Of a stretch of DNA of 34,379 nucleotides, positions 8,045 through 20,124 are shown one piece after another (positions within the stretch are counted from its first letter, which is position 1; each line of letters starts with the position of its first letter). The DNA lies in the IMG/VR virus record IMGVR_UViG_2778261181_000004; one strand, 5' to 3'. The notes beneath the pieces are model-generated. The model made no database searches and was not told where the DNA came from. It saw only the letters and a program-made list of their open reading frames with translations. A program made the translations under genes and the position numbers. This DNA comes from a virus. Lineage: Duplodnaviria; Heunggongvirae; Uroviricota; Caudoviricetes.

Positions 8045-8413
8045 CTACTTGGTGGTATTTGCCTTCGATGAGGCAAGATAGGCATCAAGATCACTTTTTA
8101 GGTAAATAACCTTTCTACCGATTTTTAAAAAAGGTATTCGAACTTTTCCTGTGCTAGCCCAATTAGCTAAGGTTTGCGCTTCTACGCCGATATAGGCTGC
8201 GGCGTCTTCTCTATTCATTTTTTCATGTTGTTCTGACAGAATACTCGTTGCTTCAAAATCAAAGCCCAGCCTTTCAAAGGCATAGATAATAGAGCCCAAA
8301 GCCATTTGTTTAACTGTTCTGTAGTTACTGCTTTCAACTTGGCTTAATGCAGTTTTTGCTGCTTCAATCACCACAAGCCAGGCATCTCGTTGGTTGTCGA
8401 TACTGCCATCCAT
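8045..8413 (-). CDS. DNA-binding protein with C-terminal excisionase/MerR-type helix-turn-helix; first gene left of the repressor
   Basis: ATG 8413 with GGAGA RBS; C-terminal AAAYIGVEAQTLANWASTGKVRIPFLKIGRKVIYLKSDLDAYL resembles HTH_17-type DNA-binding domains. Confidence 0.55.
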   Translation of the reverse strand: MDGSIDNQRDAWLVVIEAAKTALSQVESSNYRTVKQMALGSIIYAFERLGFDFEATSILSEQHEKMNREDAAAYIGVEAQTLANWASTGKVRIPFLKIGRKVIYLKSDLDAYLASSKANTTK

Positions 8414-8419
8414 ATTCAC

Positions 8420-8591
8420 TCTCCTGCCATGTGCGAATCATCCGGTCATTCATACGCCACCGTCGGCTACTTCGTGGGCGTCCTGCCTGTTCGTTATCTT
8501 TGATATAAAAATCTAACTTAACTTAGTTTTGATGGCAAGAGAAAACACCAAACTTTTCTTAGTTCGGTGTTTTGGTTAGAGAAAAGGGGGG
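8420..8591. promoter_or_regulatory. Left operator/promoter region (oL/pL analogue) with a hairpin just downstream of the repressor gene
   Basis: CTAACTTAACTTAG at 8493-8506 is 11/14 identical to the oR-side site; CTTAGTT copies at 8502-8508 and 8538-8544; imperfect hairpin AACACCAAAC...GTTCGGTGTT at about 8524-8552. Confidence 0.4.
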
Positions 8592-9218
8592 CTAGAGTTC
8601 GTATTGAACTCCTTTGACTACACCAATGATGAGGCAATTACCATTGATCGGGATGTTGGGGTACCGGGGATTTAATGGCACTAAAAACTTTTGAGGGCCA
8701 TCGATAACTAATTTTTTTACTGTGGCTTCGTTTGTTCCATCAAGTCTAGCGATGACTATTTTTCCATGCCGGGGTTCTGCATCAGGATCTACAATCACTG
8801 TTGCGCCTTCTGGTATTGTTGGGAGGCCGTTAGGGTTAGTCATGGAGTCGCCTTTAACCTCCAATGCAAATGAGTTATCACCAATCTTTAATGATGTATC
8901 TACCCACTTGTCTACTTCACTAAACACTTCTGCTGTCCTGCACTCAGTAAACTGCCCAGCCTGAACCCACGAGATTACAGGAACTCTGCGCATGTTTGTG
9001 ACGAGTTTGCCTTCAAACTCCGCACCATAAAGAATGTAATCTATTGACGTATTGAAGAACTTCGCTAATTTTGAAAGTGCTTCCCCACCAGGGACATTGA
9101 TGTCTTTCTCCCAGTACCCCACAGCAACGTCACTTACTCCACAAAATTTACCCAATTCTTTCTGGGACGTTCTGGTAACTCTTCTCAGAGCTTTTATACG
9201 CTGACCAACCGTTTCCAT
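8592..9218 (-). CDS. cI-like prophage repressor (N-terminal HTH plus C-terminal S24 LexA-like autopeptidase domain)
   Basis: N-terminal HTH (QKELGKFCGVSDVAVGYWEK); C-terminal domain with GDSM active-site Ser motif; divergent from a cro-like gene. Confidence 0.85.
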   Translation of the reverse strand: METVGQRIKALRRVTRTSQKELGKFCGVSDVAVGYWEKDINVPGGEALSKLAKFFNTSIDYILYGAEFEGKLVTNMRRVPVISWVQAGQFTECRTAEVFSEVDKWVDTSLKIGDNSFALEVKGDSMTNPNGLPTIPEGATVIVDPDAEPRHGKIVIARLDGTNEATVKKLVIDGPQKFLVPLNPRYPNIPINGNCLIIGVVKGVQYEL

Positions 9219-9315
9219 AGGAGCACCATTTCTTTAATTACTAAGTAATCTTAGTTTTTATTGACCTAAGATAGATTGATAATTAACATCTAATAAAACT
9301 TAGTTTGGAGGGCAT
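9219..9315. promoter_or_regulatory. Right operator/promoter region (oR / pR / pRM analogue)
   Basis: Inverted repeat ACTAAGTAATCTTAGT at 9240-9255; CTTAGTT copies at 9250-9256 and 9299-9305; candidate -35 TTGACC (9261-9266) and -10 TAACAT (9284-9289); GGAGGG RBS before the cro-like ATG. Confidence 0.5.
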
Positions 9316-9516
9316 ATGACGACTGACGATATCGAAAGCTACTTCGGCAGCATTGAGAAAGTTGCTGCTTTTTTCGGCATAACAACTGAAGCCGTTTATC
9401 AGTGGCGAAACCGTCCTGGCCAGTTAATTCCAAAAGGACGTGCAGCAGAGGCTGCATATAGAACTTGCGGACGGTTGCCATTTAAACCTGAGCTTTATGA
9501 AAAATCTAATGGATAA
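9316..9516 (+). CDS. Cro-like transcriptional regulator (YdaS-type)
   Basis: 66-aa HTH protein divergent from the repressor; GGAGGG RBS 4 nt upstream. Confidence 0.75.
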   Translation: MTTDDIESYFGSIEKVAAFFGITTEAVYQWRNRPGQLIPKGRAAEAAYRTCGRLPFKPELYEKSNG

Positions 9517-9553
9517 ATCGATTTACAGAAACCACAGATATGAGGGCTTAAAC

Positions 9554-10138
9554 GTGGGTAAAGAACCTGAATGGAAAGTTGATAAGCAACCAGCATGGCT
9601 GGTGGCAGCAATACGAAGAACGATTGCTGATTTACCTCATGGCTATGAGGAAGCAGCAGAAATTCTTGGTTTGTATAAATCTGATGATATCACCCCAGCA
9701 AAAGATCAATTGCATAACAGACTGCGTAGCGGTGGGGATCAAATTTTTCCACTTGAGTGGGCCATGGTTTTACAGGATGCCAGTGGTACCAGGCATGTAA
9801 CGGATGCAATAGCCCGTCGTAGTAATGGGGTGTTTGTGCCGCTGGTGGTCATTGATGACATTGACAATGGTGACATTAATCAGCGGCTGATGGAGTCAAT
9901 AGAATGGATTGGCAAGCATTCCCAGTACTTACGCAAGGCAACTGCTGATGGAGTTATTGACCAAGCTGAGCGTGAGCAAATCGAAGAGAACAGCTACCAA
10001 GTAATGGCGAAGTGGCAGGAGCATTTAACACTGTTATTTCGTGTTTTTTGTGCGCCGGAAAAGAGTAACGCCCGCGAGTGTGCAGCTCCGGGCGTCGTGG
10101 CGTCGATTGCTTCTGGTTGTGGAGAAACTAACGCATGA
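9554..10138 (+). CDS. CII-like regulatory protein (phage CP76 / YdaT-type family)
   Basis: Immediately downstream of the cro-like gene; preferred start GTG 9554 with GAGGG RBS 8 nt upstream (alternative ATGs at 9497 and 9509; ORF-track start 9440 overlaps cro). Confidence 0.6.
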
Positions 10139-10473
10139 ACAGTTTAACAACACACTACCGTCGTTCGCAACTGATTGCGCTTCCTGTACCGGGTGGAAAA
10201 GCGAAGGTGGAATATTGCTATGCAGTGAATGTACCAGGTGACAGGGAAATTGTAACCCACAGCTTTGCAGAGTGGGCTGTGGGTGATTTCAACCGGCAGA
10301 AGGAGACAGTCCTTTGCGACAAGTTAACCGCTGGTTCAAAGATCACTACGGAGTGCCCGTCAGAGTCATTCGTTGGGAGCCGGAAACACAACGGGTTATC
10401 TACCTCCGTGAAGGCTATGAACATGAGTGCTTCAGCCCGCTCGAACAGTTTCGTCGTAAATTCAGGGAAATAG
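10135..10473 (+). CDS. Hypothetical protein between the cII-like and O-like genes; C-terminal third may be out of frame
   Basis: ATGA overlap with the upstream stop; ends 10 nt before the O-like start; a second frame (TTG 10314, AAGGAG RBS, to 10526) encodes more protein-like sequence. Confidence 0.4.
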
Positions 10474-10482
10474 AGGTCGGTC

Positions 10483-11475
10483 ATGAGCCTGTTAATGACA
10501 TCCCAGCCCATTGTGATAAATCGTGATCTTGCATGCCGTATTGGTCTGAATGAGGCAATTGTGTTGCAGCAGCTTCATTACTGGCTGAATGAAACGAATT
10601 CCGGCACTGAGCATGGCGGAATTCGCTGGGTTTATAACACGACAGAACAGTGGCTGGAGCAGTTTCCGTTCTGGTCAGAGTCCACTCTGAAACGCACATT
10701 TGCAAGCCTGAAATCACTTGGGGTTTTGCGTCGCGAGCAACTCAATAAATCGAAGCGTGACATGACCAACTTCTACACGATCAACTATGAAAGTGAGCTT
10801 CTAGAAGAGGTCAAAGTGAACGAATCCATCAGGTCAAAATGCACTTCTCCATCGGGTCAAAGTGACCTGATGGATGGGCGCAAAATGACACGATCCATTG
10901 GTTCAAAACGACACGCTGTCATCGGGTCAAAATGGCCCAATGATCTTACAGAGAATACAACAGAGATTACTACAGAGAATAAAACCTCTTCTCGTCCGGA
11001 CGCTTCGCAACCGGACACGCAGATGGCTGAACAGGATTTTTTAACTCGCCATCCTGATGCGGTTGTATTCAGCCCTAAAAAGCGCCAGTGGGGAACGCAG
11101 GATGATTTGACCTGCGCACAGTGGCTCTGGAAAAAAATCATCGCTCTGTACGAGCAGGCCGCCGAATGTGACGGCGAAGTGGTACGTCCTAAAGAACCGA
11201 ACTGGACAGCCTGGGCAAACGAAATTCGCCTGATGTGTGTACAGGATGGGCGTACTCACAAACAAATCTGCGAGATGTACAGCCGCGTCAGCCGCGATCC
11301 GTTCTGGTGCCGTAACGTGCTCAGCCCGTCGAAGCTGCGGGAAAAATGGGATGAGCTTTCCCTGCGCTTATCGCCGTCCGTCAGCACGCACACAGAAAAA
11401 CGCGAAGACCCGTACTTCAAAGCCAGTTACGACAATGTGGACTACAGCCAGATCCCGGCAGGATTCAGGGGGTGA
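10483..11475 (+). CDS. Replication initiation protein, lambda O-like, with the origin embedded in the gene
   Basis: Position after the cII-like gene; internal iteron array and adjacent AT-rich tract; AGAGG RBS. Confidence 0.7.
   Translation: MSLLMTSQPIVINRDLACRIGLNEAIVLQQLHYWLNETNSGTEHGGIRWVYNTTEQWLEQFPFWSESTLKRTFASLKSLGVLRREQLNKSKRDMTNFYTINYESELLEEVKVNESIRSKCTSPSGQSDLMDGRKMTRSIGSKRHAVIGSKWPNDLTENTTEITTENKTSSRPDASQPDTQMAEQDFLTRHPDAVVFSPKKRQWGTQDDLTCAQWLWKKIIALYEQAAECDGEVVRPKEPNWTAWANEIRLMCVQDGRTHKQICEMYSRVSRDPFWCRNVLSPSKLREKWDELSLRLSPSVSTHTEKREDPYFKASYDNVDYSQIPAGFRG
10805..10940 (+). repeat. Origin iterons: about six direct repeats of a GGTCAAA(A/G)TG-type core
   Basis: Cores at about 10809, 10830, 10855, 10878, 10901 and 10925 (spacing 21-25 bp), followed by an AT-rich ACAGAGA-repeat tract at 10941-10990. 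Confidence 0.6.
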
Positions 11476-11477
11476 TC

Positions 11478-11966
11478 ATGAGTCTTTTGAATGAAGCTCA
11501 GAAATTCATTGAAGCCCATCCGGGGTGTACTTCCGGAGACATTGCGGATGCTTTTGCAGGTTACTCACGGCAGCGCGTTCTGCAGTCAGCAAGCAAGTTA
11601 CGTCAGAGTGGGCGTGTGGCTCACCGTTGTGAAGGAGATACACGCAGACATTTCCCACGCCTGACTGAGAGAGCGCAGGAGCCGGAACCACAACCAGTTC
11701 GTGAAACCAGACCTGTGCGCAATTTCTATGTCGGCACTAACGATCCCCGGGTGATTTTGTGCCTGACCCGCCAGGCTGAAGAACTGGAGTCCAAGGGCTT
11801 ATACCGTCGTGCTGCAACCGTGTGGATGGCGGCATTCCGTGAAAGCCACTCCCAGTCAGAACGAAACAATTTTCTGGCGCGCCGTGAGCGGTGCTTACGG
11901 AAAAGCAGCAAGCGCGCTGCATCGGGTGAAGAGTGGTATCTGTCAGGGAATTACGTGGGGGCTTAA
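11478..11966 (+). CDS. YfdN-like protein; C-terminal region resembles PerC/ANR-type regulators (tentative)
   Basis: ATG 11478 after AGGGGGTG, overlapping the O-like stop; C-terminal LTRQAEELESKGLYRRAATVWMAAF motif; sits where lambda P would be. Confidence 0.5.
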   Translation: MSLLNEAQKFIEAHPGCTSGDIADAFAGYSRQRVLQSASKLRQSGRVAHRCEGDTRRHFPRLTERAQEPEPQPVRETRPVRNFYVGTNDPRVILCLTRQAEELESKGLYRRAATVWMAAFRESHSQSERNNFLARRERCLRKSSKRAASGEEWYLSGNYVGA

Positions 11967-12619
11967 TGAGTAATAAATATTGCCAGGCGCTGGTGGAACT
12001 GCGGAACAAACCAGCCCATGAACTGAAGGAAGTGGGCGATCAGTGGCGCACGCCGGACAACATTTTCTGGGGAATTAACACCCTGTTTGGCCCGTTTGTT
12101 CTGGATCTGTTCACTGACGGTGATAACGCCAAATGTGCCGCGTATTACACGGCGGAAGATAACGCGCTGGCGCATGACTGGTCAGAACGTCTTGCGGAGC
12201 TTAAAGGTGCTGCCTTTGGTAATCCCCCATACAGCCGCGCCAGTCAGCATGAGGGGCAATACATCACCGGCATGCGTTACATCATGAAACATACCAGTGC
12301 CATGCGTGATAAGGGCGGGCGCTATGTTTTCCTGATCAAAGCTGCCACCAGCGAAGTGTGGTGGCCGGAAGATGCGGACCATATTGCTTTTATTCGCGGG
12401 CGTATTGGTTTTGAACTGCCTGCCTGGTTTATCCCGAAGGATGAGAAGCAGGTGCCGACAGGAGCTTTCTTCGCTGGTGCTATTGCTGTTTTCGACAAGA
12501 CCTGGAAGGGACCGGCAATCAGCTACATCGGGCGCGATGAACTTGAGGCATGTGGTGAAGCCTTTCTGGTGCAGGTTCGCCAGCAGGCGGAAAAACTGGT
12601 CAGGGAGATGGCAGCATGA
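11966..12619 (+). CDS. Phage Dam-like N6-adenine DNA methyltransferase
   Basis: Catalytic NPPY motif (FGNPPYS); TAATG overlap with the upstream stop; typical nin-region location. Confidence 0.75.
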   Translation: MSNKYCQALVELRNKPAHELKEVGDQWRTPDNIFWGINTLFGPFVLDLFTDGDNAKCAAYYTAEDNALAHDWSERLAELKGAAFGNPPYSRASQHEGQYITGMRYIMKHTSAMRDKGGRYVFLIKAATSEVWWPEDADHIAFIRGRIGFELPAWFIPKDEKQVPTGAFFAGAIAVFDKTWKGPAISYIGRDELEACGEAFLVQVRQQAEKLVREMAA

Positions 12620-12942
12620 CGACGTTAACTCAATGCCAGCAGCAGGTGCTGGATATGCTGATTTCTTACCAGAAAGAACGTGGCTTCCCGCCAACCAATC
12701 AGGAGGTGGCAACCATGCTGGGATACCGTTCAGTGAATGCAGCGGTGGAGCATCTTCGCGCACTGGAGAAAAAAGGCGTCATTACGATAAAGCGTGGCGT
12801 GGCCCGGGGGATAACGCTTCATACCGCAGTGAAGGACGACGACAGAGAGGCGGTCGGGATTATCCGCTCACTGCTTGCCGGTGAGGAAAACGCAAGGCTG
12901 CGTGCAACCCACTGGTTACATGAGAGGGACCTGAAAGTATGA
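12616..12942 (+). CDS. LexA DNA-binding-domain-like protein lacking the S24 autopeptidase domain
   Basis: N-terminal 70 aa (QQQVLDMLISYQKERGFPPTNQEVATMLGYRSVNAAVEHLRALEKKGVI) closely parallels the LexA N-terminal winged helix; protein ends after about 108 aa. Confidence 0.7.
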   Translation: MTTLTQCQQQVLDMLISYQKERGFPPTNQEVATMLGYRSVNAAVEHLRALEKKGVITIKRGVARGITLHTAVKDDDREAVGIIRSLLAGEENARLRATHWLHERDLKV

Positions 12943-13328
12943 AGCTGATCCTGCCTTTTCCGCCCAGCGTGAACACGTACTGGCGACATCCCAACAAAGG
13001 GGCGTTTGCTGGTAAGAGCCTGATAAGCGCGGCGGGGCGAAAATTCCAGAGCGCGGCGTGCGCAGCAATAGTTGAGCAGTTACGTCGTCTGCCAAAACCA
13101 ACGTCGGCACCTGCTTCAGTGGAGATCGTGTTGTTTCCTCCGGATAACCGGATCCGCGATCTGGACAACTATAACAAGGCGCTGTTTGACGCCCTGACCC
13201 ACGCGGGTGTGTGGGAAGACGACAGTCAGGTGAAAAGAATGCTGGTGGAGTGGGGACCGGTTATCCCGGAAGGGAAGGTCGAGATCACCATCAGTAAGTA
13301 CGAGAAAACGGCGGGTGCAGCCGCCTGA
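12939..13328 (+). CDS. rusA: RusA-family Holliday junction resolvase
   Basis: ATGA overlap with the upstream gene; motif pattern LPFPPSVNTYWRH ... DLDNYNKALFDALT ... WEDDSQV matches RusA. Confidence 0.8.
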   Translation: MKLILPFPPSVNTYWRHPNKGAFAGKSLISAAGRKFQSAACAAIVEQLRRLPKPTSAPASVEIVLFPPDNRIRDLDNYNKALFDALTHAGVWEDDSQVKRMLVEWGPVIPEGKVEITISKYEKTAGAAA

Positions 13329-13347
13329 TCAAGAGGAGAAACGAAGT

Positions 13348-14157
13348 ATGAATAATCTGATGGTCATTGATGGTATTGAAGTTCGTCGTGATGCTTATGG
13401 GCGTTACAGCCTGAACGATCTGCACAGGGCTGCCGGGGGAGAACAAAAAAACCGCCCGAAATACTGGCTCTCCAATAAGCAAACCTGTGAATTGATTGAA
13501 CAACTTTTCACCGAGGGTGGAATTCCGCCTCTGGAACAAAATCAACCAGTTAGCGTCATTAATGGCGGAAATAACCAGGGGACGTATGTCTGCAAAGAAC
13601 TGGTGTATGCCTATGCAATGTGGATCAGCCCGTCATTCCATCTGAAGGTGATCCGTACTTTCGACATGGTAACCAGCGCACCGGAAAAATTATCCGGACA
13701 GGCTGCTGACAAGATGCAGGCTGGCGTGATCCTGCTGGACTTTATGCGCCGGGAATTAAATCTGTCTAACTCATCAGTGCTTGGAGCCTGTCAGAAGCTT
13801 CAGGAGGCTGTTGGCTTACCGAATCTGGCACCGCGCTATGCCATTGATGCTCCTGCTGACGCGCCTGATGGCTCAAGTCGCCCCACGCTGTCGCTGAGTG
13901 CACTGCTGAAGCAGTATGGTATCCGCCTGACAGCTAATCAGGCATATCACCAGATGGCGAAGCTGGGGATCGTTGAACAACGTGAACGATACAGCCGCAC
14001 TGCGATTAACAACATCAAAAAATTCTGGTCGCTGACAGCGAAAGGCTGCATGTTCGGCAAAAACATCACCAGTCCCGCAAATCCGCGCGAGACGCAGCCG
14101 CATTTCTTCGAATCCCGATTCCCTGAGCTGTTAAAGCTGCTCGATACCGTTCATTGA
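13348..14157 (+). CDS. KilA-N domain protein (antirepressor-like) with uncharacterised C-terminal domain
   Basis: ATG 13348 with GAGGAG RBS; N-terminal KilA-N-like region MNNLMVIDGIEVRRDAYGRYSLNDL ... ELVYAYAMWISPSFHLKVIRTFD. Confidence 0.6.
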   Translation: MNNLMVIDGIEVRRDAYGRYSLNDLHRAAGGEQKNRPKYWLSNKQTCELIEQLFTEGGIPPLEQNQPVSVINGGNNQGTYVCKELVYAYAMWISPSFHLKVIRTFDMVTSAPEKLSGQAADKMQAGVILLDFMRRELNLSNSSVLGACQKLQEAVGLPNLAPRYAIDAPADAPDGSSRPTLSLSALLKQYGIRLTANQAYHQMAKLGIVEQRERYSRTAINNIKKFWSLTAKGCMFGKNITSPANPRETQPHFFESRFPELLKLLDTVH

Positions 14158-14158
14158 G

Positions 14159-15154
14159 GTGACCGTGAGAGCACTACTGACCCCTGAAATTGCCCCGCGT
14201 ATGGGGATCGTATTGTTCAGGCCAGGTTCAGAGCTGATGCCCCTGTTTATGCAGGGGCGTGTTCTGCTGGAGCCTGAGCCGGAACGTTACTCATCTTTCG
14301 CCAGTGGTGCCGTTCCGGCGGCATCACAACCGCTGGCGGATGATCCTGCCGTTCGGGCCGTGTTCCGCAATGAGGCAGTGATCCGTCGTGCTGGTGGCGT
14401 GGAATGTCTTGAAAGCTGGTTACTTCGTGAAAAAGGCTGCCAGTGGCCTCATTCCGACTGGCACAGCGAGAACATGACCACAATGCGACACGCTCCGGGT
14501 GCAATCCGTCTGTGCTGGCACTGCGATAACCAGCTGCGCGATCAGTTCACGGAACGGCTGGAATCAATGGCAACGGATAACTGTGCCCGCTGGGTGTTGT
14601 CTGTTGTGCGTCGGGATCTCGGTTTTGATGATAGTCACGTTGTGACAATGCCGGAACTGTGCTGGTGGCTGATTCGTAATGATCTGGCGGATGCCTTACC
14701 GGAAAGTGCAGCCCGTAAGGCACTGAGATTACCGAAGCCTGTTGTGCCGTCTGTTACCCGGGAAAGTGACCTTGTGCCTTCGGTTCCTGCCACCAGCATC
14801 ATCCAGGATAAAGTGAAAAAGGTGCTGGCGCTGAAAGTGGATCCGGAGTCGCCGGAGTCTTTTATGTTACGCCCAAAACGTCGCCGCTGGGTTAATGAAA
14901 AGTACACGCGCTGGGTTAAGACACAGCCGTGTGCATGTTGTGGTAAGCCTGCTGATGATCCCCACCACCTGATAGGTCACGGTCAGGGTGGAATGGCTAC
15001 AAAAGCGCATGACCTCTTTGTGTTGCCTTTGTGCAGAAAGCATCACGACGAGCTGCATGCGGATACCGTGGCATTTGAAGAGAAGTATGGCTCCCAGCTG
15101 GAGCTGATATTTCGTTTTATCGATCGTGCGCTGGCAATAGGCGTGCTGGCCTGA
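14159..15154 (+). CDS. DUF968-family nin-region protein with C-terminal HNH/zinc-finger-like motif
   Basis: GTG start 2 nt after the upstream stop; C-terminal CACCGK ... DPHHL ... LPLCRKHHDELH cluster. Confidence 0.55.
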   Translation: MTVRALLTPEIAPRMGIVLFRPGSELMPLFMQGRVLLEPEPERYSSFASGAVPAASQPLADDPAVRAVFRNEAVIRRAGGVECLESWLLREKGCQWPHSDWHSENMTTMRHAPGAIRLCWHCDNQLRDQFTERLESMATDNCARWVLSVVRRDLGFDDSHVVTMPELCWWLIRNDLADALPESAARKALRLPKPVVPSVTRESDLVPSVPATSIIQDKVKKVLALKVDPESPESFMLRPKRRRWVNEKYTRWVKTQPCACCGKPADDPHHLIGHGQGGMATKAHDLFVLPLCRKHHDELHADTVAFEEKYGSQLELIFRFIDRALAIGVLA

Positions 15155-15171
15155 TTTTGTGGAGAAAGTTG

Positions 15172-15543
15172 ATGCGTGATATTCAAATGGTTCTTGAACG
15201 TTGGGGGGCATGGGTGGCAAATAATCACGAGGATGTGGAATGGTCATCTGTTGCTGCAGGTTTTAAGGGATTAATTCCTTCGAAAGTAAAATCCCGCCCG
15301 CAATGTAGCGATGACGATGGCCTGATCATTAGCTCTGCGATGACAGTTCTTAAGAAAAAGGAACCGTATCAATACGAATTACTGGAAATGTATTATGTGT
15401 ATGGGGTTACATTACGGGCGTTGGGGGTAAAACTGGGGATATCACTTAATCAGGTTGTTATCAGACTGCAGAAAGCTGAAGGGTTTATTGACGGTTGTCT
15501 GGCAATGTTGGGGGTATCTTTAGAAATTGATTGTTACATATAG
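15172..15543 (+). CDS. Late-gene antiterminator Q (phage 82/21-type Q family)
   Basis: ATG 15172 with GGAG 7 nt upstream; N-terminus MRDIQMVLERWGAWVANN matches the Q-family start; lies upstream of the lysis cassette. Confidence 0.7.
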   Translation: MRDIQMVLERWGAWVANNHEDVEWSSVAAGFKGLIPSKVKSRPQCSDDDGLIISSAMTVLKKKEPYQYELLEMYYVYGVTLRALGVKLGISLNQVVIRLQKAEGFIDGCLAMLGVSLEIDCYI

Positions 15544-15618
15544 TAATAAATTCAATCAAAGTAAATAATCATATTTTATTATAACCTCCTGATGATACCT
15601 GTTCATTGGGAGGTTATT

Positions 15619-16236
15619 ATGGATAAAAATGTAGAGCATGTATTAGTTGATGCAATTGAAAATAAGCTATCTTTAACAGTCGTTTACTTAGGAGGGAGCC
15701 AGCCCGGAACATTAAGGAATATTTCTCCGATTAGTATAAATGGGGATAAATTGCGGGCAAGATGCCATAGTTCTGGAGCAGTAAAGGTTTTCAATCTTGG
15801 GAAAATACAGTTACCCAGTGACTCCTGCGCGGTATCTATGCACTATGGAGATTTAGAAGTTAAAGCTTATGAGACGATGCAGAGCGTAAATGACAACTTT
15901 CATGCCCTTTATCCTGAAGGACGATGGGGTGTTGATTTTAATGAGCATCGCTTTGCTTTATTTGATTTTTTTAAAAACGGGAAACGAAAAAAAACGGCAT
16001 TTATGGCAATTGAGTTCAGGGAAAGAGATGAAGAGAAAATAATAACAGGTGTAACAATTGATATTGGTATATCTGGAACAGTGATTTCTGAGAAGTCCCG
16101 AATCCCAAAAAGACGACCATGGGTAGTGGTTGGTCCCGAACACGGAGAATACAGTACTTATTCAACTTTGGACAAGGCTGCTACAGCGTTTTTTGAGAGG
16201 CTATCGTTGATAGCATCCGGCCTGGAAGATAATTGA
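15619..16236 (+). CDS. Hypothetical protein, AT-rich moron directly downstream of Q; function unknown
   Basis: ATG 15619 with GGGAGG RBS; 205 aa; composition clearly more AT-rich than flanking genes; no motif recognised. Confidence 0.6.
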   Translation: MDKNVEHVLVDAIENKLSLTVVYLGGSQPGTLRNISPISINGDKLRARCHSSGAVKVFNLGKIQLPSDSCAVSMHYGDLEVKAYETMQSVNDNFHALYPEGRWGVDFNEHRFALFDFFKNGKRKKTAFMAIEFRERDEEKIITGVTIDIGISGTVISEKSRIPKRRPWVVVGPEHGEYSTYSTLDKAATAFFERLSLIASGLEDN

Positions 16237-16365
16237 TTTTATGTTTGGTATTCAGAGTTCGCCGTGCTTAAGAAAGTCAAGATTCTAAAAATACTGAATG
16301 AGCTACTTGTGTTATAACAAAAATGCTATTAGTGTGTTAAGAGTGGTTACTTCGACACACAACTT

Positions 16366-16390
16366 AAACCCGCCACTGAGCGGGTTTTTT
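16366..16390 (+). terminator. Intrinsic terminator downstream of the moron
   Basis: AAACCCGC / GCGGGTTT stem, CACTGA loop, then TTTTTT. Confidence 0.7.
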
Positions 16391-16488
16391 GTACCTGTAA
16401 ACTTGGTGCAGTACAGTAAACACGCTGGTGGTCGTGAATACTGACTTTTTATCTTGCTGGCTTTTTAGACAAGAGTTATTGGTATGTC

Positions 16489-16716
16489 ATGTTAACCAGA
16501 AGGGAAAAAGACATGCTAAAACAGCAAGATATGACAGAAACCGCCGCCGCAGTCCTTCATTTCTTACCTGCTGACAAGTGGGTAACGCCACGCATGATGA
16601 CGAGAACTACCGGAGTAAGCGAAGCCCGGTGCCAGTTAATACTGACTCAGTTAGTTCTGGCGGGTCTGGCGAAGGATAACGGCGGGTACGGGAATAAATT
16701 CAGACGCTGCCAGTAA
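16489..16716 (+). CDS. Small putative DNA-binding (winged-helix-like) protein upstream of the methyltransferase
   Basis: 75-aa ORF; alternative start ATG 16513 with AAGGGA RBS; weak helix-turn-helix-like segment TRTTGVSEARCQLILTQLVLAGLA. Confidence 0.4.
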   Translation: MLTRREKDMLKQQDMTETAAAVLHFLPADKWVTPRMMTRTTGVSEARCQLILTQLVLAGLAKDNGGYGNKFRRCQ

Positions 16717-16866
16717 TGGCGGTTTCCTGCTGTGAAAATGGGCGGCTGGTGGGTGTTGGTAGCACCTGCCAGCCATTCGCTCATGCTTACTGGTCACAAG
16801 CGAACCACGGCCCACTGCTTTAGCGCAAAAGCAGAGTGAGCCTACCAGAGTTACGCTTACTGATCC

Positions 16867-17919
16867 ATGAAAAATACTGTAAAAATAAACAGTGTTGATT
16901 TAATCAACGCTGATTGCCTGCATTTTATTCAGTCCCTGCCTGATGATTCCATTGACCTGATTGTTACCGATCCGCCGTACTTCAAGGTGAAACCCAACGG
17001 TTGGGACAATCAGTGGAAAGTGGACGAAGATTACCTTAAGTGGCTGGACCACTGCCTGGCCCAGTTCTGGCGGGTGTTAAAACCTGCCGGAAGCCTTTAT
17101 CTGTTCTGTGGGCATCGCTTGGCATCTGATATTGAGATCATGATGCGTGAACGTTTCAACGTGCTTAACCATATCATCTGGGCGAAGCCGTCCGGACGTT
17201 GGAATGGGTGTAATAAAGAAAGTCTGCGCGCATATTTTCCTGCCACAGAGCGCGTTCTGTTTGCTGAACATTACCAGGGGCCATATCGCGGCAAAAGTGA
17301 CGGCTATGCAGCAAAAGAAAGGGAACTCAAACAGCACATAATGGCACCGCTGATATCGTATTTCAGGGATGCTCGTGCCGAACTGGGTATAACGGCAAAA
17401 CAAATTGCCGAAGCCACAGGTAAGAAAAATATGGTTTCCCACTGGTTTGGTGCCAGTCAGTGGCAGTTGCCGAATGAGGCTGACTATCGGAAGTTACAGG
17501 CACTGTTTTCCCGTATAGCGGCAGAGAAGTTTCAGGAACAACAACTGGAACAACCACACCACCAGCTGGTGGCATCTTATGATTCACTGAATCGCAAATA
17601 TTCTGAATTGCTGGATGAGTTTAAATCTCTCCGGCGCTATTTCTCCGTATCAGTCTCCGTGCCTTATACCGATGTCTGGATGCATAAACCCGTTCAGTTC
17701 TACCCGGGGAAACATCCGTGTGAGAAACCGGCGGATATGCTCAGGCAAATAATCAATGCCAGTAGTCGACCAGGTGATCTGGTTGCTGATTTTTTTATGG
17801 GATCCGGTTCCACAATAAAAGCAGCAATGGCGCTGGGGCGTCGGGCCTTAGGTGTTGAGCTTGAGTCAGAGCGGTTTAACCAGACAGTGACAGAGATAAA
17901 CGAGCTGGTGGGGAAATAA
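16867..17919 (+). CDS. Orphan beta-class DNA methyltransferase (N6-adenine or N4-cytosine)
   Basis: DPPY motif near the N-terminus (LIVTDPPYF) and AdoMet-binding FxGxG near the C-terminus (DFFMGSGST); no adjacent restriction endonuclease gene. Confidence 0.8.
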
Positions 17920-17925
17920 TCTGGT

Positions 17926-17950
17926 GGCCACGTCAGGTGGCCTTTTTATT
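17926..17950 (+). terminator. Intrinsic terminator between the methyltransferase and the holin
   Basis: GGCCAC / GTGGCC stem with GTCAG loop, followed by CTTTTTATTT. Confidence 0.6.
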
Positions 17951-17986
17951 TCCATTACACAGCACCCGCATCTGCGAGGTGGGGTT

Positions 17987-18202
17987 ATGAAATCCATGGA
18001 TAAGTTAACAACGGGTGTCGCCTATGGCACCTCAGCAGGTAGTGCCGGGTACTGGTTTTTACAGTTGCTCGATAAAGTCACGCCCTCACAGTGGGCGGCA
18101 ATAGGTGTGCTGGGTAGTCTGGTATTTGGCTTGCTGACGTATCTGACAAACCTTTATTTCAAGATTAAAGAAGACAAGCGTAAGGCTGCACGGGGAGAGT
18201 AA
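17987..18202 (+). CDS. Holin with dual-start motif (class II-like, 71 aa)
   Basis: Tandem starts ATG 17987 and ATG 17996 (M-K-S-M) after GAGGTGGGG RBS; TM segments; charged C-terminus [13 protein letters not shown]. Confidence 0.75.
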
Positions 18203-18206
18203 TTCA

Positions 18207-18557
18207 ATGACTCAAAACTATGAACTGATTGTGAAAGGGATCCGCAATTTTGAGAATAAAGTTACGGTAACTTTAGCATTACAGGACAAAGAACGCTTTG
18301 ACGGTGAAATTTTTGACCTGGACATCTCGCTGGACCGTGTTGAAGGTGCTGCGCTGGAGTTTTATGAGGCAGCGGCCAGAATGAGCATCAGACAGGTCTT
18401 CCTGGATGTCGCTGCCGGGTTATGTGAAGGGGATGAGCAGTCGCCGGAAAAGCGCCCCGTAATTTTAGAGGCGCAGAATGTATGGATAACCTACAAAGGA
18501 AAGCTACCGGGAAGGATTACTGGTTCTCTGAAGACTCCTCCGGAATCACAACCTTAA
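18207..18557 (+). CDS. YdfR-like (DUF1327-type) protein in the lysis cassette
   Basis: 116-aa ORF starting 5 nt after the holin stop; same position as ydfR between essQ and rrrQ in E. coli Qin; family from memory. Confidence 0.5.
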   Translation: MTQNYELIVKGIRNFENKVTVTLALQDKERFDGEIFDLDISLDRVEGAALEFYEAAARMSIRQVFLDVAAGLCEGDEQSPEKRPVILEAQNVWITYKGKLPGRITGSLKTPPESQP

Positions 18558-18620
18558 GTCACTGACCGGAACAGATAAACCTGTCCGTGGGCAGAAACCG
18601 ATAAATCCTGATAAATATCC

Positions 18621-19154
18621 ATGAACGCAAAAATCAGATACGGCCTGTCGGCTGCCGTTCTGGCACTGATTGCCGTCGGTGCGCCCGCGCCTGATATTCT
18701 CGACCAGTTTCTGGATGAAAAAGAAGGTAACCACACAACGGCATACCGCGATGGGTCCGGCATCTGGACCATCTGTCGGGGTGCCACGATGGTGGATGGA
18801 AAACCCGTTTTTCCCGGTATGAAACTGTCGAAGGAAAAATGCGACCAGGTCAACGCCATTGAGCGTGATAAGGCGCTGGCATGGGTGGAGCGCAATATTA
18901 AAGTACCACTGACCGAGCCACAAAAAGCGGGTATCGCGTCATTTTGTCCCTATAACATTGGCCCCGGTAAGTGTTTTCCGTCGACGTTTTATAAGCGGCT
19001 GAATGCTGGTGATCGTAAAGGTGCATGCGAGGCGATTCGCTGGTGGATAAAAGATGGTGGGCGCGATTGCCGCATACGTTCAAATAACTGCTATGGGCAA
19101 GTTATTCGTCGTGACCAGGAAAGCGCATTAGCCTGTTGGGGGATAGATCAGTGA
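18621..19154 (+). CDS. SAR endolysin (phage lysozyme, T4/P21-type)
   Basis: N-terminal weakly hydrophobic Ala/Gly-rich signal-anchor-release segment ([18 protein letters not shown]); catalytic E-x8-D-x5-T triad ([16 protein letters not shown]). Confidence 0.85.
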
Positions 19155-19618
19155 GCAGAGTCGCCGCGATTATTTATGCTCTGGTTATCTGCATCATCGT
19201 CTGCCTGTCGTGGGCGGTCAATCATTATCGTGATAACGCCATCGCCTATAAAGAACAGCGTGATAAAAAAGTCAGTGAGCTGAAGCAGGCGACCGCCACC
19301 ATTACTGACATGCAGCAGCGCCAGCGTGCTGCTGATGCACTCGATGCTAAATACACGAAGGAGTTAGCTGATGCGAAAGCTAAAAATGATGCTCTTCGGC
19401 GCAAGCTTGATAATGGTGGTCGGGTGTTCGTCAAAGGAAAATGCCCTGTGCCATCCTCAGCCGAAACCTCCAGCGCCTCCGGTATGGGCAATGATGCCAC
19501 CGTCGAACTCTCTCCAGTTGCTGGACGAAACGTTCTCGGTATCCGGGACGGAATCATCAGAGACCAGACAGCACTGAGAACGCTTCAGGAATATATCAGG
19601 ACGCAATGCCTTCGATGA
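19151..19618 (+). CDS. Rz: i-spanin Rz
   Basis: GTG 19151 gives [34 protein letters not shown], near-identical in pattern to the lambda Rz N-terminus; overlaps the endolysin stop. Confidence 0.85.
19371..19577 (+). CDS. Rz1: o-spanin Rz1, embedded in the +1 frame of Rz
   Basis: [21 protein letters not shown] with lipobox VVGC and proline-rich mature region, as in lambda Rz1. Confidence 0.8.
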
Positions 19619-19836
19619 TAGAGATAATTTTACTCATCATCCTTCACATCTGGTTCTGTAGACAGGGTGGTGATCACTTCTGGAGTGAATCCAGATTAAA
19701 CATCTCATTGCTGATGCTTAAAGTTGAGCATTTGGCGCGCGGTAAGGGGCTGCGTTTAGATAAGAGCCAGTCATCACAAACACCAGGATTTAGCCTCGCA
19801 TTCGCGGGGCTTTTTATTGCAACAAAGGTAAAGACG

Positions 19837-20124
19837 ATGGATGAAGAATATCGTAAAGACCTGCAACTGTGGTTTGGTCTTACGCATGCGTCGTTCTGCG
19901 TGATGCCGCGAGTATTCATGGAGGCTATGCCTCCAGAATGGCAAGAGAAGATGGCTCAGTTGCTTTTTGAGTATAGCGACACGATCAAAACGGATGTCTG
20001 CGGAGTTCACAGCTGTTTTGTTACTGCCAAAGACGGCAACAACCGCTTTATGAGGATGCCAGAAGATATTCTGAACTATCGTCATCCTCGACGTGAATTC
20101 ATCGAATCATTTCTGAAGAAGTAG
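19837..20124 (+). CDS. Hypothetical protein (95 aa) between the spanin genes and cos
   Basis: ATG 19837 preceded by AAAGG; the ORF-track N-terminal extension from 19606 looks non-coding. Confidence 0.35.
   Translation: MDEEYRKDLQLWFGLTHASFCVMPRVFMEAMPPEWQEKMAQLLFEYSDTIKTDVCGVHSCFVTAKDGNNRFMRMPEDILNYRHPRREFIESFLKK

Follow-up and report, generated by a model that had tools for sequence, protein, structure and literature searches.

E. coli prophages encode M.EcoGII, an adenine methyltransferase that has been characterised as non-specific (Murray et al. 2018, PMC5778455). According to that publication, the gene is silent in its lysogen, clones expressing it constitutively grow slowly and are unstable, and the enzyme was expressed in a host carrying an mcrC-mrr deletion. 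M.EcoGII, Anc291 and SUPREM are all three reported as non-site-specific there and in the SUPREM paper (PMC5778455, PMC11551740). M.EcoGII and M.EcoGI, from prophages of E. coli O104:H4 C227-11, share with the enzyme of our study a length of about 350 aa, a beta-class order of DPPY, recognition region and FxGxG, a prophage-borne orphan status and a lysis-proximal position. The accessible text of the M.EcoGII publication describes the enzyme, and the terminators, winged-helix gene and leader RNA reported below are absent from it.

At the level of gene order, the nearest counterparts are SfV orf47-orf48 and the equivalents in mEp460, cdtI, Ayreon and Stx2 phages, which have the same module with the same boundaries and both terminators annotated, but differ in the types of Q and holin and in what lies between Q and the first terminator. 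The com-mom genes of Mu and the Com-linked Hin1523, Nma1821 and Hia5 (Drozdz et al. 2012, PMC3299994) are alike in combining a toxic, broad anti-restriction gene expressed late with an upstream gene for a tiny nucleic-acid-binding protein and an RNA structure near the start codon. However, Com is a zinc finger and its translational activation is proven, whereas the protein of our locus is a predicted winged helix and such activation is hypothesised; Hin1523 and Hia5 are Dam-related, unlike PF01555 beta-class enzymes, and Mom is an enzyme of acyltransferase fold. The C-proteins of type II systems also have a gene for a small DNA-binding-type protein just upstream of the modification gene, but they are Xre-type HTH proteins (~80 aa) that act on C-boxes and time a restriction enzyme, whereas our locus has a predicted winged helix and no restriction gene. 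Finally, riboswitches and translational leader switches resemble the leader described here in having a multi-helix junction that abuts the start codon and two exclusive conserved folds, one of which would occlude initiation. Our leader differs in having no Rfam match, and its trigger could equally be a protein.

We analysed a stretch of 34,379 nucleotides of a caudoviricete genome (IMG/VR record IMGVR_UViG_2778261181_000004), hereafter the window. The conserved module within it runs from a tR'-type terminator through a 67-aa winged-helix gene, a leader RNA of ~140 nt and an M.EcoGII-family gene to a second terminator and the lysis genes. The methylase module is a well-known lambdoid late-gene anti-restriction unit and as such is ordinary. 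We consider it likely that the region is the standard late-operon methylase module of lambdoid and N15-like phages, with the leader as a second lock, a role deduced from its anatomy. The features are as follows:

15157..15543, + strand: late-gene antiterminator Q, 5' of the module, given for context (Pfam Phage_antitermQ PF06530, E = 5e-48)
15544..16365, + strand: low-GC, lineage-specific insert from Q to the terminator, outside the conserved module
16366..16390, + strand: upstream intrinsic terminator, hairpin with U-run, at the putative tR' position of the late operon; left edge of the conserved module
16513..16716, + strand: small gene for a predicted winged-helix protein, 67 aa (mechanical ORF 16489-16716, 75 aa)
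16703..16726, + strand: hairpin across the stop codon of the small gene (folds of the window and of relatives L004, L102 and L164)
16729..16866, + strand: conserved structured leader RNA of the methyltransferase mRNA (conservation, covariation, covariance model)
16739-43 with 16810-14, + strand: leader structure, helix P1
16744-74, + strand: leader structure, hairpin P2
16776-81 with 16799-804, + strand: leader structure, helix P3
16815-34, + strand: leader structure, P4
16839-57, + strand: leader structure, P5
16861-65, + strand: UGAUC directly 5' of the AUG, the only Shine-Dalgarno-like element
16867..17919, + strand: M.EcoGII-family beta-class N6-adenine DNA methyltransferase, 350 aa (Pfam, identity, motif order)
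17926..17950, + strand: downstream intrinsic terminator, between methyltransferase and holin (terminator scan, fold, annotation in relatives)
17987..18202, + strand: P21-type holin S, 71 aa, with Met1/Met4 dual start, the first lysis gene, given for context (PF04971, E = 2e-35)

The first-pass annotation had already placed the two terminators, the small ORF, the methyltransferase and the holin, and re-examination of the sequence found all of them at those coordinates. The upstream terminator consists of a stem AAACCCGC (16366-16373), a CACTGA loop, a second stem strand GCGGGTTT (16380-16387) and TTT to 16390, with a folding energy of -14.3 kcal/mol (z = -3.3). A simple terminator scanner run on the window did not list this hairpin, probably because the longest stem absorbs three T residues. 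The identical 24-mer carries a terminator annotation in Ayreon (two copies) and SfV, and an equivalent hairpin lies 50-110 nt 3' of Q in SfV, Hafnia phage yong2 and Morganella phage IME1369_02, which have three unrelated Q genes. The downstream terminator, recovered by the terminator scan, reads GGCCAC-GTCAG-GTGGCC followed by TTTTTATT (17926-17950), with a folding energy of -12.2 kcal/mol (z = -2.5), and is annotated as a terminator in SfV and Ayreon. The hairpin at 16703-16726 is a weak terminator in the window, where its U-run is UUU only, but a strong intrinsic terminator occupies the same place in relatives; the SfV counterpart is listed as terminator-like (SfV 2753-2768). The edges of the module are real mosaic junctions: homology with other phages starts exactly at 16367, and it stops at 17981 in the comparison with SfV.

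The Q gene is annotated as quuD in an E. coli genome with the same module. The PF06530 match is followed by the terminator at 16366-16390 and then by the holin and, 3' of it, DUF1327, lysozyme and Rz, which is the Q, terminator and lysis order of a lambda-type late operon. The insert between Q and the terminator has a GC content of 34-41% and showed no match among 50,697 phage records until position 16366; in other prophages the same interval holds a minus-strand porin or other ORFs. It encodes a 205-aa ORF (15619-16236) of phrog_8498 (E = 3e-125), a family of no assigned function, and searches with this ORF and with the small protein in PADLOC and the PDB gave no match. When the pR'/qut of this Q was sought, only a weak promoter-like site (15592-15620) was seen, in the region after Q that has no phage-record match. 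Promoter-like sites in the region number 7, against 7.0 in shuffled sequence. We infer that the upstream hairpin is a tR'-like terminator of the late operon, an assignment that leans on relatives given a Q-terminator spacing of 0.8 kb in the window. Given this assignment and the lack of a conspicuous promoter, expression of the methyltransferase would depend on Q antitermination. The proposal of the first-pass annotation that the gene pair is an independently regulated insertion marked by terminators is not supported: the upstream hairpin belongs to the conserved post-Q position, and promoter-like sites are at the shuffled level. The real insertion in the window is a different one, the low-GC stretch 15544-16365.

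The small ORF, given as 67-75 aa in the first-pass annotation, is a genuine gene. Its best start is ATG 16513, which follows an AAGGGA and agrees with the annotation in Ayreon, PhiR40_1 and RefSeq. The changes across relatives are those of a protein-coding sequence (3149 synonymous and 1379 non-synonymous). Its product is predicted to be a minimal winged-helix fold, with sub-threshold matches to the TrmB, DprA_WH and MarR winged-helix models, and compared with Xre-type C-protein models it gave no HTH_3 match. The SfV allele has diverged (48.6% identity), and the SfV leader is identical. The gene accompanies the methyltransferase across genera, also in relatives that have no leader. In particular, the winged-helix gene occurs without the leader in L348-L372 and the leader without the winged-helix gene in L096, L100 and L142, and because each occurs alone a strict partnership between protein and RNA is unproven.

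No restriction endonuclease family adjoins the methyltransferase in the window, where it is flanked by the small winged-helix gene and the holin, which agrees with the first-pass observation. The same was found in relatives: a restriction enzyme was absent from 35 non-redundant downstream neighbours standing for 68 species loci, all of which were holins or unrelated morons. The locus therefore lacks the cognate endonuclease of a Type II restriction-modification system. The first-pass annotation regarded the pair as an independently regulated cassette bracketed by terminators; in such a self-contained, insulated unit the small DNA-binding protein would be a C-protein-like transcriptional controller of the methyltransferase. 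A winged-helix fold is typical of transcription factors, the protein is tied to the methyltransferase across genera and there is one weak promoter-like site within the small gene (16571-16598), yet we judge this arrangement unlikely. The promoter-like sites show no excess over shuffled sequence, the upstream terminator is the conserved post-Q one, a strong terminator parts the two genes in many relatives, and the homologue in N15-like phages is placed upstream of the late promoter. Moreover, the small protein is not a C-protein, because it is a predicted winged helix with no Xre/HTH_3 match and there is no restriction enzyme gene to control.

A second alternative is that the winged-helix protein is unrelated to gene control and acts together with the methyltransferase or after it, for example by binding m6A-rich DNA and shielding it from methylation-dependent (type IV, Mrr, DpnI-like) restriction. 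Winged-helix domains are known m6A readers (PMC11037411), hypermethylated DNA would be a target of such enzymes (the host of Murray et al., PMC5778455, had an mcrC-mrr deletion), and leaderless relatives keep the protein and the methyltransferase linked. We nonetheless give this role little credence, and retain the late-operon module with a guarded methyltransferase as the preferred reading.

Beta-class enzymes carry the catalytic motif IV (DPPY) on the N-terminal side of the recognition region and the SAM-binding motif I (FxGxG) after it. The window enzyme matches Pfam N6_N4_Mtase (PF01555, E = 6e-42, residues 29-340) and has DPPY at residues 35-38 and F-M-G-S-G (FxGxG) at 310-314, both invariant in 10 diverse homologues; the beta-class assignment of the first-pass annotation, made from the order of these motifs, is thus borne out. 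It is identical to M.EcoGII at 280/349 residues (80%) over the full length, with 2 gap positions, to Anc291 at 89% and to SUPREM at 71%, and the recognition region aligns without gaps; the reference sequences of this comparison were machine-read from a supplementary PDF and a few of their residues may be wrong. Identity to the methylases of SfV, cdtI and PhiR55_1 is 98-99% (97.7-99.4% across the SfV, mEp460, cdtI, Ayreon and Stx2 equivalents). M.EcoGII itself had no entry when searched against PDB sequences, and its nearest solved relatives are M.RsrI and M.MboIIA-type enzymes.

We infer from these comparisons that the window enzyme would methylate adenine in essentially any context, with 20% of its residues unlike those of M.EcoGII. 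It could instead be a sequence-specific orphan methyltransferase that serves epigenetic regulation or protects from one restriction system only, in keeping with the majority of PF01555 enzymes, which are sequence-specific; the residues that differ from M.EcoGII include some in the central recognition region, and specificity is unreadable from sequence. However, the enzyme sits between M.EcoGII and the reconstructed ancestors Anc291 and SUPREM, all reported non-site-specific (PMC11551740), and the recognition region needs no gap in the alignment; we thus find sequence specificity quite improbable.

The 150 nt between the two genes, which had been treated as empty, proved to be the most conserved non-coding part of the module and a structured RNA. 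Conservation of this leader exceeds that of the flanking small ORF. In the MAFFT alignment, 81% of the cells pair, compared with 27-49% in slid controls, and a covariance model found one leader copy per locus at 70 loci. Compensatory changes occur in 27/35 leader pairs, the covariation score is 0.219 (0.094 in shuffles), and many G-U pairs are oriented so that they are workable only on the + strand. RNAalifold on the MAFFT alignment gave P1 and part of P2 only, and the variable helices needed a manual structure and realignment to the covariance model. A first IMG/VR scan, with a single protein as query, yielded no copy below 98% identity and so was of no use for covariation; a scan of species-representative genomes took its place. 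In IMG/VR, 78/80 matches to the leader pattern are followed by this methyltransferase. Without exception, a start codon directly follows the leader. In Vibrio and Aeromonas phages that AUG belongs to a CxxC...CxxC mini-ORF located ahead of the methyltransferase. In Photorhabdus and Xenorhabdus it is shortened and P1 is impossible.

Neither the window nor seven diverged loci matched any Rfam 15 family on the + strand at E <= 1, and we found no described RNA motif upstream of phage methyltransferases in the literature. The leader is a conserved structured RNA, apparently undescribed, and a well-supported candidate for a new cis-regulatory RNA family. A leader peptide from ATG 16738 was rejected, as its length and frame are unconserved (6 to >30 codons by lineage); 1-nt indels argue that the leader is not coding. 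We also rejected the idea that folding of the leader is coupled to termination of the small ORF, whose stop codon lies 23 nt upstream of P1. Among other searches of the window, a tRNA scan found none, an STnc130-like Rfam hit on the minus strand over the first terminator (E = 0.077; 30 bits, with the gathering score at 55) was taken as chance, and an anti-sRNA of the AgvB/AsxR type (PMC4104026) was dropped after no match to any prophage sRNA family in Rfam at permissive thresholds. It is very improbable that the 140-nt stretch is a DNA-level element (recombination junction, Chi hotspot) or a short coding sequence and no RNA regulator: the Chi octamer at 16745-16752 is kept in 45/70 copies while the opposite P2 strand varies, ATG 16738 opens a 33-codon frame and the module junctions of these phages are recombination hot spots, but the compensated and strand-specific pairs, the indels that wreck any reading frame, the helices retained in diverged copies without Chi and the constant position next to a start codon all argue for a leader RNA.

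The leader RNA also has an alternative fold, in which a long helix (16792-16802 with 16854-16865) buries the UGAUC before the AUG. For the sequence of the window, this fold has the minimum free energy (z = -2.9). It is 88-89% paired, a percentage of cells that is inflated as the fold was derived from the window's own sequence, and 9-10 pairs have changed on both sides, compared with 5.5 +/- 1.2 in shuffles. The 5' strand of the long helix (UGGGCG) is invariant, so the helix itself is without compensatory changes. The GGUCAC loop is kept in variants without UGAUC, and pairing with UGAUC is therefore not its sole role. The anatomy of the alternative fold suggests a translational gate that sequesters the start region, and the leader and the winged-helix protein probably keep a toxic enzyme off.

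In the late-operon module as we read it from Murray et al. 2018 (PMC5778455), the SUPREM paper (PMC11551740) and lambda Q biology, Q-modified RNA polymerase would read through the terminators late in lytic growth, so that the enzyme would be made only then and would methylate progeny DNA, protecting it from many restriction systems of types I, II and III in the host. In the lysogen the enzyme would be kept silent, since constitutive expression would harm the cell. The leader, with its two mutually exclusive conserved folds, may form a second, post-transcriptional lock, such that transcripts from leaky read-through would stay untranslated until a late factor shifts the leader fold; this factor could be the winged-helix protein, in a role like that of Com for Mu mom, or a metabolite. 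More tentatively, and less likely than not, the leader may represent an undescribed bistable cis-regulatory RNA class dedicated to M.EcoGII-type genes of gammaproteobacterial phages, in which a GAUCAC (16S-rRNA-like) loop and its neighbours would pair with the start region, block translation of the toxic enzyme and be opened late by the 67-aa protein (a Com-like zinc ribbon in Vibrio and Aeromonas phages) or by a metabolite, e.g. SAM.

The Com-like CxxC...CxxC mini-ORFs were found only in the relatives L089, L090, L307, L313 and L322, and the window encodes a predicted winged helix instead. In a Pfam scan of the L089 and L090 mini-ORFs, the Vibrio one matched generic zinc-ribbon models only and the Aeromonas one none, so that the likeness to Com is that of the motif CxxC...IKCPRCK alone. 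Relatives without the leader have a LexA box and a Com-like ORF instead, which argues that the methyltransferase family is under special control in the sampled lineages.

The same module is annotated in SfV, mEp460, cdtI, Ayreon, PhiR40_1 and Stx phages. Among 5426 complete E. coli genomes, 1476 contain its DNA. In Stx2a_WGPS2 it lies upstream of tRNAs and stx2, and it is also found in Hafnia and Morganella phages. More broadly, the methyltransferase family adjoins lysis genes in lambdoid, N15-like, Vibrio, Aeromonas and P2-like phages. The cassette thus confirms textbook biology, namely a non-specific adenine methyltransferase in the late operon, directed against host restriction and very common in E. 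coli prophages. Its leader is a candidate cis-regulatory RNA family with a directly testable switch model, and since M.EcoGII is in wide use as a research reagent but difficult to express constitutively, the natural control elements could aid its expression. Finally, the family apparently never occurs unguarded: terminators, the winged-helix protein, the leader, Com-like zinc ribbons and LexA boxes are combined by lineage, so that the family lends itself to studying how phages keep a self-toxic enzyme in check.

The first-pass annotation described a small ORF and an orphan methyltransferase held between two intrinsic terminators, and each of these elements was found in the window, in a lambdoid prophage setting and at the coordinates first proposed; both terminators fold well. 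The cassette was correctly described; it is the module of a late-operon anti-restriction methyltransferase of the M.EcoGII family, already known and very common among phages. The gene order is:

14159-15154, DUF968 protein
15157-15543, antiterminator Q (PF06530)
15619-16236, 205-aa ORF of unknown function (phrog_8498)
16366-16390, hairpin terminator (fold -14.3 kcal/mol, z = -3.3)
16489/16513-16716, small ORF
between the small ORF and the methyltransferase, 150 nt without an annotated gene
16867-17919, methyltransferase, 350 aa
17926-17950, second terminator (fold -12.2 kcal/mol, z = -2.5)
17987-18202, P21-type holin, then DUF1327, lysozyme and Rz

Megablast also recovered the module in PhiR40_1, mEp460, cdtI, Ayreon, SfV and many Stx-converting phages, and the DNA of 16340-17960 was found in 1476 out of 5426 complete E. 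coli genomes. The SfV and Ayreon annotations cover both terminators, the small ORF (orf47) and the methylase (orf48). The left homology edge against other phages falls at exactly 16367, in the first base pairs of the terminator stem, and the right edge in SfV at 17981, just 5' of the holin start. Given these sharp edges and the existing annotations, the module is a discrete mosaic unit, already in databases and partly annotated. Ayreon carries two copies of the terminator hairpin around a two-ORF insert (locus L001, 2417-2460 and 3096-3134), which suggests that the hairpin acts as a recombination junction for gaining extra genes.

The methyltransferase matched the Pfam N6_N4_Mtase family (E = 6e-42), and the beta-class motif order read from the sequence was confirmed, with DPPY at residues 35-38 and FMGSG at residues 310-314, both invariant across ten diverse homologues. 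It showed 80% identity to M.EcoGII over the full length with two gap positions (reference GenBank EGT69837.1 from Table S1 of PMC11551740, machine-read, with a few letters possibly wrong), 89% to the reconstructed ancestor Anc291 and 71% to SUPREM/Anc284. PMC5778455 describes M.EcoGII as methylating adenine in any sequence context, and its gene as prophage-borne and silent in the lysogen, with constitutive expression leading to slow and unstable cell growth. Both ancestors are likewise reported to be non-site-specific (PMC11551740). Similarity to these enzymes argues strongly that the window methyltransferase would methylate adenine non-specifically.

The absence of an adjacent restriction gene also held in relatives. 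The first ORF 3' of the methyltransferase was taken from 68 loci of different Enterobacterales species, and 35 non-redundant representatives were scanned with Pfam: these were holins of at least five families and occasional unrelated genes, with no endonuclease family among the 35. The methyltransferase is a true orphan enzyme. In some species (loci L093-L172), a HicA toxin, a ParD-like antitoxin, a Tad2-like anti-Thoeris domain, a protein kinase or a cold-shock protein was located between methyltransferase and holin.

The proposed small ORF stood as well: its 67-aa frame from the ATG at 16513 is the one annotated elsewhere, and it has a Shine-Dalgarno-like AAGGGA. The protein matched phrog_331 (function unknown) and has 89 homologues. 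Differences among 21 diverged alleles were most numerous at third codon positions (7044 vs 3761 and 3092), and single-base codon changes were 3149 synonymous vs 1379 non-synonymous; the small ORF is a gene under purifying selection. It contains the invariant segment RCQLILTQL..AGL, and its AlphaFold model (pLDDT 86.6) comprises three helices and a two-strand wing. An Xre-type C-protein identity was rejected, since the predicted fold is a winged helix and family members gave sub-threshold matches to the TrmB, DprA_WH and MarR models. Profile comparison (hhalign) identified N15 gp51 (L007 2506-2733) and PY54 ORF59 (L088 992-1225) as remote homologues (probability 78-79%, E about 2e-5). In these N15-like phages both genes lie just 5' of the late promoter, followed by terminator, leader and methyltransferase, which indicates that the linkage between winged-helix gene and methyltransferase is old.

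The independently regulated insertion of the first-pass annotation was not borne out. In SfV, Hafnia phage yong2 and Morganella phage IME1369_02, each with a different Q gene, an equivalent of the upstream hairpin occurs 50-110 nt 3' of Q, and this is the position of tR', the terminator after Q in the lambda-type late operon; promoter-like sites in 14500-20000 were not in excess (7 vs 7.0 in shuffles). The small gene and the methyltransferase would then be part of a Q-antiterminated late transcript, with both terminators acting as barriers passed solely by Q-modified polymerase. Such late transcription is the most economical reading, a step that we only infer because pR' (the late promoter) and qut (the Q-binding site) of the window's Q were not located. 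In many relatives, among them Stx-type, Enterobacter and Yersinia ones (L004 3200-3225; L102 and L164 about 1340-1365), a third intrinsic terminator, a strong one, spans the small gene's stop codon directly 5' of the leader, so that two terminators lie 5' of the leader; the corresponding window hairpin (16703-16726) is weak, with a short U-run. On the minus strand, 16358-16494 gave a sub-threshold Rfam match to the Salmonella sRNA STnc130 (30.1 bits, gathering score 55, E = 0.077), with its end at the terminator hairpin as seen from that strand; the match may be due to chance, or may represent an antisense sRNA sharing a bidirectional terminator.

Between Q and the terminator lies a low-GC (34-41%) insert of 0.8 kb (15544-16365), with no match in the phage collection searched; its place in E. 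coli strain A20 is taken by a porin gene on the minus strand. Its 205-aa ORF had no Pfam, PADLOC or PDB match, and the Shine-Dalgarno of this ORF lies within a strong hairpin (15575-15622, -23 kcal/mol, z = -5.0). If pR' were just 3' of Q, the ORF would be transcribed in the lysogen.

In relatives ranging from E. coli to phages of Hafnia and Morganella, conservation of the 150-nt gap exceeds that of the small gene, and one-nucleotide indels led us to reject a coding role. It holds a leader RNA (16729-16866) directly 5' of the methyltransferase start codon, with five covarying helices:

P1, 16739-16743/16810-16814
P2, hairpin 16744-16774
P3, 16776-16781/16799-16804
P4, 16815-16834
P5, 16839-16857

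By nhmmer, the element was found directly 5' of the methyltransferase ATG in about 65 of 80 species-representative loci gathered via the methyltransferase protein. The helices were proposed by hand. When 65 sequences were aligned with MAFFT alone, 81% of cells pair vs 27-49% with slid partners, and 20 pairs changed on both sides vs 10.8 +/- 1.6 in shuffles. A covariance model built from this alignment found a single copy in each of 70 loci, and one in the window at 16729-16869 (153.9 bits). In the model-based alignment, which is fitted to the model and so leans towards structure, the MAFFT result being the unbiased control, 83% of cells pair, compensatory changes occur in 27 of 35 pairs and the covariation score is 0.219 vs 0.094 +/- 0.005. 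G-U pairs, which can form on the + strand only, are frequent. An IMG/VR search with an RNA-core pattern, independent of the protein, returned 80 loci; the methyltransferase ORF starts 53-55 nt past the pattern in 78, and the other two are a leader without a methyltransferase gene and a chance match within a coding region. Neither the window nor seven diverged loci gave an Rfam match for the leader, and our literature searches found no published description. The leader is a strongly supported structured RNA that is apparently unrecorded. Chi octamers (GCTGGTGG) numbered 16 vs 1.25 expected, 13 on the + strand, all within the first 19 kb of the window (2880-19046); one lies in P2 (16745-16752), where 45 of 70 leaders retain it while the opposite strand varies.

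The leader was found only before this methyltransferase family or before a Com-like mini-ORF preceding the methyltransferase: in one Vibrio and one Aeromonas phage a CxxC...CxxC mini-ORF, followed by the methyltransferase, has its AUG at the leader's 3' end. It lies directly 3' of the late terminator in N15-like phages (N15, PY54, 48ST307) and is shortened in Photorhabdus and Xenorhabdus, while other lineages of the same methyltransferase family are without it altogether. In one IMG/VR contig (L215 5035-5420), winged-helix gene and leader are intact and the methyltransferase is deleted past its fourth codon. Further arrangements in IMG/VR relatives are:

L307, L313, L322: LexA box and clearly Com-like zinc-ribbon ORF, no leader
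L296-L306, L308: LexA box and a different conserved leader (GAUGCCUUGAGUACCUGAGACCCA...UUCAAGGCUCU)
L348-L372: winged-helix homologue, terminator and normal Shine-Dalgarno, no leader

The minimum-free-energy fold of the window leader (-56.9 kcal/mol, z = -2.9) differs from the covariation consensus. UGGGCG (16739-16744) pairs with CGCUCA (16778-16783) in place of P1, 16792-16802 with 16854-16865, covering UGAUC just 5' of the AUG, and GGC (16809-16811) with GCC (16840-16842); every alternative helix is incompatible with one of P1, P3 and P5. Across the family the alternative pairs are 88-89% paired vs 26-44% when slid, and 9-10 changed on both sides vs 5.5 +/- 1.2 in shuffles, for a fold derived from the window's own sequence in which one strand never varies. 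The methyltransferase has no canonical Shine-Dalgarno. UGAUC is complementary to GAUCA near the 16S rRNA 3' end, and the P3 loop motif GRUCAC, which persists in variants without UGAUC, is identical in sequence to this stretch of 16S. Because a conserved alternative fold buries the start region and a canonical Shine-Dalgarno is absent, we propose that the leader forms a translational gate: one of its two folds would hide the initiation region. Beyond the known module, the added value is this leader RNA; taken with the conserved winged-helix protein that accompanies it, it raises the testable possibility that a toxic enzyme is locked at a post-transcriptional step.
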